The notes under the pieces were generated by a model. It was not told the DNA's origin. It made no database searches and was given only the letters and a program-made list of their open reading frames with translations. From positions 14,326-78,325 of the forward strand of contig SVHX01000002.1 of assembly GCA_015055665.1 (NCBI GenBank): 64,000 nucleotides of DNA, in the 5' to 3' direction. Shown one piece after another: positions 41,445 to 45,754 of this stretch (position 1 is the first letter of the stretch; each line of letters starts with the position of its first letter). Source of the DNA: Clostridiales bacterium. GTDB lineage: Bacteria; Bacillota; Clostridia; Christensenellales; UBA1242. Both the position numbers and the translations under genes were made by a program.

Positions 41445-41723
41445 ATGAGCGAAGAAGTTATCGAGCAAGTTGCTACTACTGAGGAGAAAGCTGCTCCTAA
41501 GAAGTTTAAGAAAGTAGCAAGAAAGAAAGTTTGCCAATTCTGTGTAGATCATGCAGAAGAGATCGATTACAAAGATGTAGCTAAACTAAAAAGATATATT
41601 ACTGAGAAAGGTAAAATCCTTCCTCGTAGACAAACTGGTACTTGTGCAGAGCACCAGAGAGCATTAACTGTTGCAATTAAGCGTGCAAGAGAAATGGCAT
41701 TACTTCCATATGTTGGAGAGTAA
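41445..41723 (+). CDS. rpsR: 30S ribosomal protein S18
   Basis: KKVCQFC, IDYKD, GKILPRR.TG, AIKRAR..ALLPY. Confidence 0.96.
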
Positions 41724-42144
41724 TTGGGTATTAACTTTTTGAATGTCAAAAAGTTACAAAAACCATTGGGGAATTACGATTTTCCCCAAACCCCTTGAAA
41801 CGTTTTTCAAGTGGATTATATTGATATGAAAAAATGACTCAAACGAGTCATTTTTTTGTGGGTTGCGTATACGAAGTATTGCGACATATTCACTTGGCTG
41901 ATTATATGGATAAAATTATATGTCGCATTTCCTCGGACTCCTAAAACGCCTTTAATAAGGCTGATTTTAATAATAAAAACAAAAAGTCCCGCTGTTGAAG
42001 TTGTAAAACTTCCTTATCGGGGCTTTTTTGTTGCAAAAAACACTATTTTTACTGCTCAAGATAGCATTAGGAGAGCATTTGTTTGATAAATTTTCCAAGA
42101 TATCATTTGGAGGAGAGCAAAAATAGAAACCTAAGTTTTTATAA

Positions 42145-42924
42145 TCACATTCCATCCCATCCAAAAAAATCTTCTTCTTGTGTTGATTGAGAAGATGCGG
42201 ATTGTTGTTCTTTTTGTCTTAGCACTTCTTGTTCGTAAGTTTTTAATTCTTGAATTTCTTCTGCAGACAATGGCATTTTGTATTTACTTTTTTCATTAAA
42301 TAATGCAAGATAATCATCTATCGTAAATGAAAAATCTGAATTAATGTTAACATTATAAATTTGTTGTTTTAGATAATGAAGATAATTTTCGTGTACTTTT
42401 TTAAAAGCGGATTCTCTTCCATTTTTATTTGAATTCTTAAAGTAATTTTCATTTGGTATAAAAGTTTGAGTGATGGCATCATATGCTCCAACAATAAATT
42501 CACTCATAAGAACATCATAAAGAGGGGGCTCGGTGAACAACTCCTTGTCATCATTTGAGATATAAAAAGCTTTTTTTTCAGTAAAAGCTGCTTCTTTCAT
42601 ATCATTAAAACAAAAGTAATCTGGAAATATATAATTCTTAGGTAATGCAATTATTATCGTTCGCTTACTTTCTAAATGCCTATTATGATTTAAAGCATCA
42701 TGAGCAGATTCTCTATATAAATCGGGAGAACCAAATCCGATAGGATAAGAAGTTGAACCAATGTTTTTTGATCCTTCATTATAACCATAAGATCCGGTAT
42801 CTAGTAACAATCCATTTTTAAAAATTGAAGTTGTTATAGAATTGTCGGTGTCGTTTCCACTTCTTCCTGTTCCGTGAATATAATATTTTAAGTTTTCATC
42901 TTCAAATATTTTAGATATGTCCAT
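42145..42924 (-). CDS. Putative ADP-ribosyltransferase-fold protein (cassette 1 cargo)
   Basis: YYIHGT...SIFKNGL N-terminal motif and VL.SEFI.G strand; RBS aaagga. The ORF is solid, the function is tentative. Confidence 0.5.
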   Translation of the reverse strand: MDISKIFEDENLKYYIHGTGRSGNDTDNSITTSIFKNGLLLDTGSYGYNEGSKNIGSTSYPIGFGSPDLYRESAHDALNHNRHLESKRTIIIALPKNYIFPDYFCFNDMKEAAFTEKKAFYISNDDKELFTEPPLYDVLMSEFIVGAYDAITQTFIPNENYFKNSNKNGRESAFKKVHENYLHYLKQQIYNVNINSDFSFTIDDYLALFNEKSKYKMPLSAEEIQELKTYEQEVLRQKEQQSASSQSTQEEDFFGWDGM

Positions 42925-43360
42925 AATTTATCCTTTTAATTTATTATTAGTAGTGTAGCATTGTTGTTGTTTTATGTCAAACTTATATTGTGAGAATTTA
43001 TATTTATACACACCACAATTACTCCTTTTAATAGTAAAAATCATGCTATCTAGGATGGCATACGGATAGCATTTATAAATGAGATTAAGTGAAAGCAGAC
43101 GTTTCTAGGTAAAACTATGGGGTTTGAAGATAAAATTGCTGTACTACAAGTGAGCAGGTTTTATCGGATAATCGGGAACTTTAAATTTCATGACTTTGAT
43201 TCCATATGTTGGAGAGTAATTAAAACAAAATGTTCCTATTATAGGAACTTTTTTTCATTTCTAGAATCATTTGTTGTTGTCTATTCAAAAATGTCATCAT
43301 TAAGCATTGACTTAATTGCTTAACTATGGTATAATACTAATATATAAGGGAGATTGTGTT

Positions 43361-43762
43361 ATGAGTTACGAAGATTTAAAAAAGCATGTGTTGGGTCAAC
43401 AACAAAGTGATGTGTTGGACCAAGATTCTATAATTATTAATTTGGTGGAATCTCTTGCGGATGATTTTGCTAATGAGCATCATAATATTGAAATAAAATC
43501 AAGGCGAGATGAAATTTTAAGTAAAATTGAATCTTTATCTGATGAAGATTTGTCTAGAGCAATAGATTATTGCATGTTGGCCATTAGAAAAGTTCAACAA
43601 GACAGACATCAACTGCTTAATGAGGATGATAATGAATCAAGAAAAACTGTAACAAATGAAGTTTCAACTAATTTAACTATGTTTTATGAAAAAACATTAG
43701 AAATTCTTAAAGGATTTAAAAAACAAGATAAAGAGACTTCATTAGATAATGATGGGAAGTAA
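43361..43762 (+). CDS. Hypothetical helical protein (cassette 2 cargo)
   Basis: Promoter TTGACT-17-TATAAT (43307-43335); RBS aagggag; MSYEDLKK...DNDGK. Confidence 0.75.
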   Translation: MSYEDLKKHVLGQQQSDVLDQDSIIINLVESLADDFANEHHNIEIKSRRDEILSKIESLSDEDLSRAIDYCMLAIRKVQQDRHQLLNEDDNESRKTVTNEVSTNLTMFYEKTLEILKGFKKQDKETSLDNDGK

Positions 43763-44194
43763 TGTAACTTTGTGTCAAATGTCATTGTTCTATAAATTAC
43801 AAAGAGTTATTTTTAAGTATTATTTAGTTATAATAAATAATTTATAATCTTAATACTTGGCTTTGTTTAGACGTTTTTAAGTAGTGCCAGATATTGCAAA
43901 GTTAAAGCAAATAATGGAATTAAGATTTCCATACGTTGGAGAGTAATTTATTAAACTTTTCTTTATCATTAAAGAAAAGTTACAAAAGAAACTGCTGGGT
44001 GCGGATTTCTCCAGACCCTTAAAATGCCTTTAATATGGCTAAAATTAGAAAAATTGAAGTTCCTATTATAGGAACTTTTTTTGTTTCTAGAATTATTTAT
44101 TATTATCTAAAATCCTAAAATGTTATCATTGTGTCATAAAATATTGACTAAATAGTTAAAATCTATTATAATATATATATAAGGAGATAAAATT

Positions 44195-44437
44195 ATGAGC
44201 TTTAAAGATTTAAAAGAATATTTGTCAGACAATCATACATCTAATAGAGTTATTGATCCAAAAGCTGGCGGAGAATATAAACCAGCACCAAATCTCGATT
44301 CAGGTAAAGCGGTTGATGTAAGTGAATATGGCACGCCTGGCGATAAGCATACACCTAACAGAGCTTTTAATCCAAAAGCTGGCGGAAAATATGAACCAGC
44401 ACCAAATTTTGAAGAATTAGGTGATGATGGAATGTAA
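44195..44437 (+). CDS. 80-aa protein with an internal duplication (cassette 3 cargo)
   Basis: Promoter TTGACT-17-TATAAT (44144-44172); RBS aaggag; two copies of D.HT.NR...PKAGG.Y.PAPN. Confidence 0.75.
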   Translation: MSFKDLKEYLSDNHTSNRVIDPKAGGEYKPAPNLDSGKAVDVSEYGTPGDKHTPNRAFNPKAGGKYEPAPNFEELGDDGM

Positions 44438-44657
44438 TACAACTTTGTTGCCGAATGTCATCAAAGTGTCATCGTTCTACAAATTACAATGAGTTATTTG
44501 TAAGTATTAGCAAGTTATAATAAATAATTTGTATTCTTAATGCTTGGCTTTGTTTAGATGTTTTTTCAGCAATACTAAATATTGCAGAGTTAAAAAATAA
44601 TTTAATTAAGATTTCCATATGTTGGAGAGTAGTCATTTGGCATGGCAATCCAATACG

Positions 44658-44693
44658 CAATAGACTTGAGGGATTTAAGTCTATTGTTTTTTT
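44658..44693 (+). terminator. Terminator after the last att copy, probably the original rpsF-ssb-rpsR terminator
   Basis: caatagactt/aagtctattg plus T7. Confidence 0.7.
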
Positions 44694-44833: not shown

Positions 44834-45754
44834 ATGGGAAAGAATATGGATTTGAAAATGTTGGAAGAGCAGTATCGCAATACTGGATCGTTAGAACATA
44901 GAAATCTTGTCATTGAAGAAGCTTTTAAATTAATATGTGCTAGGACAAGATCGAAGTACATGAGTTGTGGATTAGATATAGATGATGTTATACAGAACTC
45001 GGTTGTTATGTTAACAACTCGACTAGATAAGTACGATAGTTCGCGTGGGGCATTTACATCTTTCGTATACAATACGGTAGACAATGTGGTTAGAAGTATG
45101 CTTAAGAAGTCTTATTCTTCTATTGATGCATTAGAGCATACTAGTATTCATGTGGATAATGAGGATTATGATAGTGGTGCTATAGAGCGTGGCGAGGAAG
45201 ACATAGATACTATGTACGAATCTGTTATGGAGCAAGGGGACTTCCGAGAGGAAGTTGCTATGGAGGACATGGTGGATGGGTTTCTTAATACTCTTAACGA
45301 TATGGAAAGATATACTATAGTGCATAGGCTTGGTCTTAAGGGTGAGCCAAAGCAGAGCATGGTAGCAATTGCAAGGCACTTTGGGTACGAAGGATACAAA
45401 GAATATAAGTTGTTTGTATTTCAACAAGATAAGGTGTTAACTAGGTTTAAAAATTATTGGTTATACCATGGTAAAGAGGTAGACGGTGTGCCTATGGAAA
45501 TACTTGCTACATATGCCGAGCAAACTAATACCGTTAGGCGAAAGTATATATTGCAACATAGGTATGGGTTTAATGGAGCAGAAAAGCAGACTATTGATGA
45601 GATTGCTCGTCACCTTGGGTTACAGCGTATGCAGGTAAAAACAACCATTAGGCAGTCTTTAGATAGGATAAAGATTCATCTAAACAACCAGGCTTTCATT
45701 AAAAAATATGGTTGCGAAGATACCAATGAGAAAGAGCTGGCAGATGAAGAGTAA
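44834..45754 (+). CDS. Divergent sigma-70 family factor with two region-4 domains
   Basis: Region 2 GLDIDDVIQ...DKYDSSRGAFTSF; L...ERY.I.HRLGL...IARHFG and RKYIL.HRYG...TIDEIARHLGL; promoter TTGACA-17-TATAAT at 44717-44745. Confidence 0.75.
   Translation: MGKNMDLKMLEEQYRNTGSLEHRNLVIEEAFKLICARTRSKYMSCGLDIDDVIQNSVVMLTTRLDKYDSSRGAFTSFVYNTVDNVVRSMLKKSYSSIDALEHTSIHVDNEDYDSGAIERGEEDIDTMYESVMEQGDFREEVAMEDMVDGFLNTLNDMERYTIVHRLGLKGEPKQSMVAIARHFGYEGYKEYKLFVFQQDKVLTRFKNYWLYHGKEVDGVPMEILATYAEQTNTVRRKYILQHRYGFNGAEKQTIDEIARHLGLQRMQVKTTIRQSLDRIKIHLNNQAFIKKYGCEDTNEKELADEE

Follow-up and report, generated by a model that had tools for sequence, protein, structure and literature searches.

The window analysed here, a stretch of 64,000 nucleotides to which all coordinates refer, comes from the 1.26 Mb genome assembly (G000, 96.5% complete) of an uncultured gut member of the Clostridia and carries, on contig C9, an array of short units placed directly after the gene order rpsF-ssb-rpsR. 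The last 20 bases of rpsR are repeated at 43200, 43927 and 44613, which makes four copies with the gene's own end, and a genome-wide examination of G000 gave no further close copies of the rpsR 3' end. These copies, called cores here, divide the locus in the following way:

41445..41723 (+): rpsR, ribosomal protein S18, the target gene (Pfam Ribosomal_S18, E 9e-28)
41704..41723 (+): core 1, the 3' end of rpsR, attL-type, an imperfect inverted repeat about its central letters
41724..43219: unit 1, 1496 bp, bounded by cores and without arms of the cassette 2/3 family
43200..43219 (+): core 2, preceded by about 13 more rpsR-like letters
43220-43946: cassette 2, between copies of the rpsR 3' end
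43927..43946 (+): core 3, with central TAC in place of TAT
43947-44632: cassette 3, between copies of the rpsR 3' end
44613..44632 (+): core 4, attR-type, ending in TAG
44633..44690 (+): native flank and terminator

The sequence past core 4 matches the one that lies directly 3' of rpsR in three relatives (G005, G019 and G051), so that 2909 bp are extra at this site. Comparison with the contigs of four of 24 public sequencing runs showed all four core junctions spanned in three of them (X5, X6 and X7, which may stem from one campaign) with no differing letter, and the array is thus not an assembly artefact. The core retains its imperfect inverted repeat, and the deviation of core 3 is central, in the probable overlap. 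On the 3' side of the array, a 306-aa sigma-70-like protein is encoded at 44834-45754 (+) behind a perfect match to TTGACA-17-TATAAT.

Cassettes 2 and 3 are built on the same plan, each with one open reading frame between a left and a right arm:

43232..43248 (+): cassette 2, terminator hairpin followed by a T run
43290..43298 (+): cassette 2, left arm site, single, its partner lost
43307..43335 (+): cassette 2, sigma-70-type promoter, consensus match TTGACT-17-TG-TATAAT
43361..43762 (+): cassette 2, ORF of 133 aa, an orphan, predicted to be helical
43763..43926 (+): cassette 2, right (P-type) arm, single site at 43778
44056..44078 (+): cassette 3, terminator hairpin
44119..44138 (+): cassette 3, left arm pair, degenerate, 11-bp period
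44144..44172 (+): cassette 3, sigma-70-type promoter, consensus match TTGACT-17-TATAAT
44195..44437 (+): cassette 3, ORF of 80 aa with an internal 38-codon repeat
44454..44473 (+): cassette 3, right arm pair, 11-bp period
44474..44612 (+): cassette 3, right (P-type) arm

An earlier note on this DNA had claimed that the arms of the two cassettes align while their coding interiors do not, and pairwise alignment with dinucleotide shuffling bore this out: 96 of 108 aligned letters are identical in the left arms and 130 of 150 in the right arms (0 of 500 shuffles reaching the score in either case), whereas the ORF interiors are alike only at chance level (228 of 500 shuffles). BLAST gave 74% identity over 161 nt on the left and 80% over 218 nt on the right. 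The likeness enters both ends of the ORFs, over about seven to eight codons at the start (MSYEDLKKH in cassette 2, MSFKDLKEY in cassette 3) and about six at the end (DNDGK and GDDGM before the stop), and the shared part is therefore slightly larger than had been stated. The left arm is largely made of terminator, sigma-70-type promoter and ribosome-binding site. What the cassettes have in common includes the terminator hairpin, the promoter match, the ribosome-binding site and the first eight or so and last six or so codons, with the junction from arm site to promoter agreeing within a few letters and that from ORF end to arm site shared as well. An apparent resemblance of this terminator to an FRT site was dropped, the structure being a hairpin with a T run whose counterpart in a related element (G013, see below) has a different stem.

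Each unit carries a single orphan ORF, and none of the cargo belongs to a Pfam, PHROGs or PADLOC family. For the cassette 2 protein no homolog was found in 40 genomes of the genus, a comparison among proteins of near length returned only the protein itself, and the Atlas search gave no usable match. A single longer homolog, P0123, shares both termini with the cassette 3 protein, whose Atlas matches all stayed under 0.9. The contents of unit 1, and a repeat within cassette 3, are as follows:

41727..41830 (+): dispersed hairpin repeat, REP-like (fold z -4.7)
42145..42924 (-): ORF of 259 aa, from a family of 61 representatives, with a weak ADP-ribosyltransferase-like fold
43950..44052 (+): a further copy of the hairpin repeat, between core 3 and the left arm of cassette 3, with 46 nt identical to copies in G011

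The protein of unit 1 shows a conserved YxHGT...I..GL start in an alignment of 45 sequences, and its model is confident (pLDDT 86.6). Neither a noteworthy PDB sequence match nor a Foldseek match at E<=0.001 was obtained for it, and the ADP-ribosyltransferase folds to which the predicted structure was repeatedly but weakly matched reached a best Z of 6.1, below the reliable range, so we treat a resemblance to these enzymes as a lead only.

Unit 1 shows no likeness to the arms of the cassettes or to those of G013 (259-461 of 500 shuffles reach the scores), and it lacks arm sites of the cassette 2/3 family. The earlier note had also described a core-proximal segment common to cassettes 1 and 3 (aacttttt...aaaagttacaaaa); the segment was confirmed (5 of 500 shuffles score at least as high), but it proved to be a hairpin repeat dispersed across the genus and not a recombination arm. 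Across the genus, this REP-like repeat closely follows the stop codons of ssb and rpsR, among other genes (loci L034, L036, L039, L042, L084 and L319), its full copies in G000 are found only at the rpsR array, and in cassette 3 it forms an insertion of about 105 bp between core 3 and the left pair. A REP-like multi-hairpin repeat was also noticed at 41924-41969. The right end of unit 1 is 87% identical over 39 nt to the rpsR end of G017 and less like the host's own, and unit 1 may have come from another donor or through another integrase. The stretch in question (43187-43219) resembles the last 11 rpsR codons of distant species of the genus, of the FMxLIPYVGE type.

Paired direct repeats had been noted on both sides of cassette 3, and our examination found all four sites (44119, 44130, 44454 and 44465) with the 11-bp period. 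The related copies proposed for cassette 2 were found at 43290 and 43778, the supposed one at 43772 not being the second site of a pair: the right arm of this cassette is short by exactly one 11-bp unit and its left arm by 8 bp, which leaves cassette 2 with single sites only. In both cassettes the left site sits just upstream of the -35 box.

The counterpart of these repeats was found in another genome of the genus, G013, where a 432-aa tyrosine integrase (PF00589 and PF14659) is encoded directly 3' of rpsR, accompanied by an HTH_17/excisionase-like gene. Beside the stop codon of this integrase gene AAATGTCATC occurs twice with an 11-bp period (GATGACATTTT on the integrase strand), and the same AAATGTCATC pair stands before a second copy of the core, located on a different contig, so that both arms bear perfect pairs. 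The two ends lying on different contigs, we infer that attL and attR belong to one element from their common motif and from the synteny with two further genomes of the genus, G041 and G048. The right arm of G013 is 73-75% identical to the cassette right arms (79 of 106 letters against cassette 3, E 1.1e-13; 63 of 86 against cassette 2; 0 of 500 shuffles reaching either score), and its pair lies at -159/-148 from the core, compared with -158/-147 in cassette 3. The left arms of cassettes 2 and 3 do not match that of G013 significantly (39 and 20 of 500 shuffles, respectively, score at least as high), and here the correspondence is one of architecture only, consisting of hairpin, T run and site. 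Both G013 and cassette 3 thus have paired repeats on either side of the core, and cassette 2 has single sites. The genes seen in the G013 element are of phage type (RtcB, RNase H, phosphoesterases and a MazF-like gene); because no terminase of its own was found and its interior is unassembled, we call it phage-like. On one of its contigs (C3, 1-16000, L082) ThiF-like, reverse-transcriptase-like, RNase H and MazF-like genes were observed.

The motif is rare outside this setting. Eight loose matches to the pair were found in G000, two of them in cassette 3 and the other six with different mismatches, and among 41 genomes of the genus the pair pattern occurs only in G013 (twice) and G000 (once), being absent from 39. 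The DNA after rpsR could be read in 34 of the 40 other genomes of the genus, and four of these regions (G013, G041, G048 and G005) bear the motif; AAAATGTCAT has six exact copies there, all on the + strand, where 0.07 would be expected. The repeats are hence kept in homologues of the cassettes, namely the integrase-bearing element of G013 and three relics at the same site. The G041 relic joins a left arm of the G013 type (92 of 102 letters identical) to a right arm of the cassette 3 type (88 of 111; 0 of 500 shuffles), the two being fused at one site into a gene-less remnant of about 250 bp with an eroded core. In G048 the left arm alone is kept, and in G005 single sites flank an unrelated 332-aa ORF, the right arm and core having been lost.

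The integrase family provided a further line of evidence. Relatives of the G013 integrase were collected from 80 viral loci, 37 of which are distinct and have at least 120 nt past the stop codon, and a pair of 11-bp period occurs within 120 nt of that stop in 29 of these 37, compared with 6 of 720 control windows; periods of 10, 12 and 13 gave none. A second pair follows 195-355 nt on in 9 of the 26 viral loci with enough sequence, and the motif differs by subfamily (for example, GTGGACAA and GTGGCAAA). Genome loci of the wider integrase family have the pair in only 16 of 80, with G013 the only one at rpsR, and a large group from Bacilli, at about 44% identity, is without it; the integrases of this group adjoin genes that we take, from sequence likeness, to be parA-like or mobilisation-like. 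Most close homologs of the G013 integrase carry PF14657, an arm-DNA-binding domain. Among L231-L309, several relatives of this integrase face protein-gene 3' ends, including ends with a GKKYKxCCG motif. Given the G013 pairs, the identity of the right arms, the spacing to the core and the viral loci, the reading of the paired repeats as putative integrase arm sites is well supported.

Wider scans returned little. The single G013 integrase sequence found no relative among viral contigs, where the attR-core pattern also had no match, and the integrases of G326 (45% identity) and G226 (30%) lie in short loci in which neither an rpsR core nor a TGTCAT pair was seen. A combined arm-plus-core pattern gave 43 viral loci and the perfect pair one locus; both results were attributed to chance, none of these loci having BLAST likeness to the arms; the one match of a metagenome scan fell inside an unrelated gene and was judged likewise. 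The core pattern matched 72 of 401 genomes of the family, and among these 72, the only ones in which duplicated cores were looked for, G000 and G013 alone have more than one core copy, with no second core-to-core cassette array. The evidence behind the word lineage, as used below, consequently amounts to the two units of G000, the single decayed unit of G005 and some incomplete contigs.

The host assembly yielded no cognate integrase, nor was a close relative of the G013 integrase found in G000, G005, G041 or G048. Of the three PF00589 genes of G000, one is XerC-like and lies beside lexA; the other two encode integrases whose arm repeats are different, and these were rejected as cognates, having a best E of 8e-7 to the family profile and arm repeats of 12-bp period. 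Their repeat pairs (L002 and L003, on C2 and C4) lie after the gene, and one of the two genes is beside a tRNA-Ser.

Taking these results together, our best reading is that cassettes 2 and 3 are CIME-like mini-elements of one lineage: integrase-free units derived from a single mini-element that arose by interior deletion, stacked in tandem through the integrase of a relative, with their cargo replaced inside the ORF, and now decaying. We give this reading a probability of about 0.6. An element of the G013 kind would integrate in the rpsR end by arm-dependent tyrosine recombination, the arm-binding domain of its integrase occupying the TGTCATC pairs of 11-bp period and strand exchange taking place in the centre of the core, as suggested by G013 and by phage mv4; integration would restore the stop codon of rpsR and add a new terminator. 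Interior deletion, plausibly with help from the direct repeats that both arms carry, as the single fusion site of G041 suggests, would then leave the arms alone or the arms with one gene. Because cassettes 2 and 3 have both junctions and the ORF ends in common, both likely descend from an ancestor that was already a mini-element itself. This ancestor would have been duplicated or re-integrated, the latter step requiring that an incoming relative supply the integrase, in trans or in tandem, after which the arms would have diverged by 13-26% and the ORF interior been replaced. That arms, promoter, ribosome-binding site and end codons are common and the interior is not makes replacement inside the ORF likely, and it probably proceeded by homologous recombination across the conserved flanks.

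A less probable course of events, to which we would give perhaps one chance in a handful, is that the cassettes are independent deletion remnants of two successive prophage-like elements, each consisting of the arms and one accessory gene beside the right arm, and were never mobile as mini-elements. The deletions in G041 and G048 do end at the arm repeat at the rpsR site, the left junction of G005 differs by about 54 bp from that of the two cassettes, and the three-step route matches the one described for CIMEs in PMC5704250. The same deletion would however have to occur twice, given the common site-to-promoter junction and both ORF ends, and the gene next to the right pair in G013 points away from the core.

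The earlier note had proposed an attP-like scaffold with swappable cargo. The scaffold is upheld by the homology of the arm sites, their 11-bp period and the differing cargo; present mobility is doubtful, as cassette 2 has single sites, cassette 3 has the insertion in its left arm and core 3 reads TAC instead of TAT. These same features weigh against an active system in which a helper integrase and excisionase, acting in trans, excise and re-insert single-gene circles and exchange cargo in the manner of an integron with no resident integrase, which we consider improbable. Cassette 3 does retain both pairs and the exact right-arm spacing, the promoters and ORFs of the cassettes are intact, and other alleles exist in the public runs, in contigs whose depth is low and whose source may be related species: one contig of X6 passes from the rpsR end through 19 other letters into a terminator of the cassette 3 type, contigs of X5 and X6 show another left arm with a better pair, and in X8 an rpsR that is 99.6% identical is followed by sequence unlike unit 1, with cassette 3-like pieces present (the near-zero cover of units 1 and 2 in this run proves nothing alone). 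Only adjacent pairs stabilised the mv4 integrase (10.1101/2023.11.06.565760), whereas cassette 2 has none, a search of G000 and of the three genomes with relics gave no cognate integrase, and the contigs of the four runs, which drop rare variants, contain no circle joint and no precise core-to-core loss. Similarly improbable is a version in which the cassettes, made of att arms, terminator and promoter, are still mobile with a helper integrase and excisionase, swap cargo at the ORF ends and travel in GTA-like capsids. The least likely account, duplication in place through the core copies followed by divergence, with repeats that serve as host-regulator sites or have no role, draws on the left site lying just upstream of the -35 box and on the arms being adjacent direct repeats in the chromosome, but is opposed by the rarity of the pair in the genome and genus, by its presence after the ORF and beside the G013 integrase, and by the TAC allele of core 3 and the repeat insertion, which suggest separate histories.

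The integrase-free mini-elements that we favour resemble the CIMEs and microCIMEs of the ICESt1/ICESt3 family, which, according to PMC7563491 and PMC5704250, likewise lack recombinase and transfer genes, keep att sites and cargo, and accrete in tandem in the 3' end of a ribosomal protein gene. The units here are flanked by attL and attR sites whose cores and arms are homologous to those of the G013 element, and no integrase, relaxase or transfer gene was found inside them by Pfam, PHROGs or PADLOC. The gene-less relic of G041 is similar in size to the microCIMEs of 130-220 bp given in a Streptococcus salivarius survey (PMC7563491). Classical CIMEs, as far as these sources describe them, are larger (1.2-13 kb against 0.7 kb for our units) and are by definition decayed ICEs or IMEs, whereas the only intact relative here, with its unassembled interior, carries phage-type genes. 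CIMEs move only in cis with a tandem-integrated element; here, unlike in the CIMEs of those accounts, no functional element stands in tandem, and two units have one scaffold with cargo replaced inside the ORF.

The attP of mv4, a phage of Lactobacillus delbrueckii, spans 200-300 bp around a core of imperfect inverted symmetry and is bordered at its ends by two pairs of adjacent 11-bp direct-repeat arm sites, a design also seen here, and experiments showed that a 7-bp overlap must match (10.1101/2023.11.06.565760); mv4 is a complete phage with another motif and with tRNA-Ser as target. The rpsR 3' end is also an integration target in staphylococci, where SaPI4 and SscPIC2865 are tyrosine-integrase elements that have their own integrase and a different core (10.1101/2020.09.30.320143). 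The cassettes lack satellite genes, and no integrase, replication or packaging-interference gene of the kind that marks phage satellites (PICI/SaPI) occurs in the units. A literature search, with most subscription journals outside its reach, found no report of this element.

Tandem single-gene units with no resident recombinase are also known from integrons, as clusters of attC sites lacking an integrase, and to these the cassettes are alike. Integron cassettes are bounded by attC hairpins; the cassettes described here, in contrast, end in phage-type, double-stranded att sites that have arms and take their core from a host gene, and each cassette has its own promoter and terminator. A possible vehicle for such small units is a terminase-portal-capsid cluster that looks like a domesticated GTA-like cluster, its capsid gene being present in 78 of 80 other genomes of the family and in 58 of 58 genera. 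The cluster is syntenic between G000 (C12, ~204000-215900, L317) and G013 (C1, ~70000-80000, L314), amid housekeeping genes, and no integrase was seen beside it.

The rpsR site thus brings together a matched set, consisting of the candidate integrase and excisionase-like genes of G013 with their perfect pairs, two minimal derivatives bearing cargo and three relics that have decayed to differing degrees, which makes the origin of integrase-free units and their mobility in trans directly testable. A simple scan for repeats of 11-bp period finds att arms in the family of the G013 integrase. If the units are only relics, they would be a modest extension of CIMEs beyond conjugative elements, and if the mobile-cassette reading were true, they would amount to an integron-like shuffling of genes built from prophage arms.
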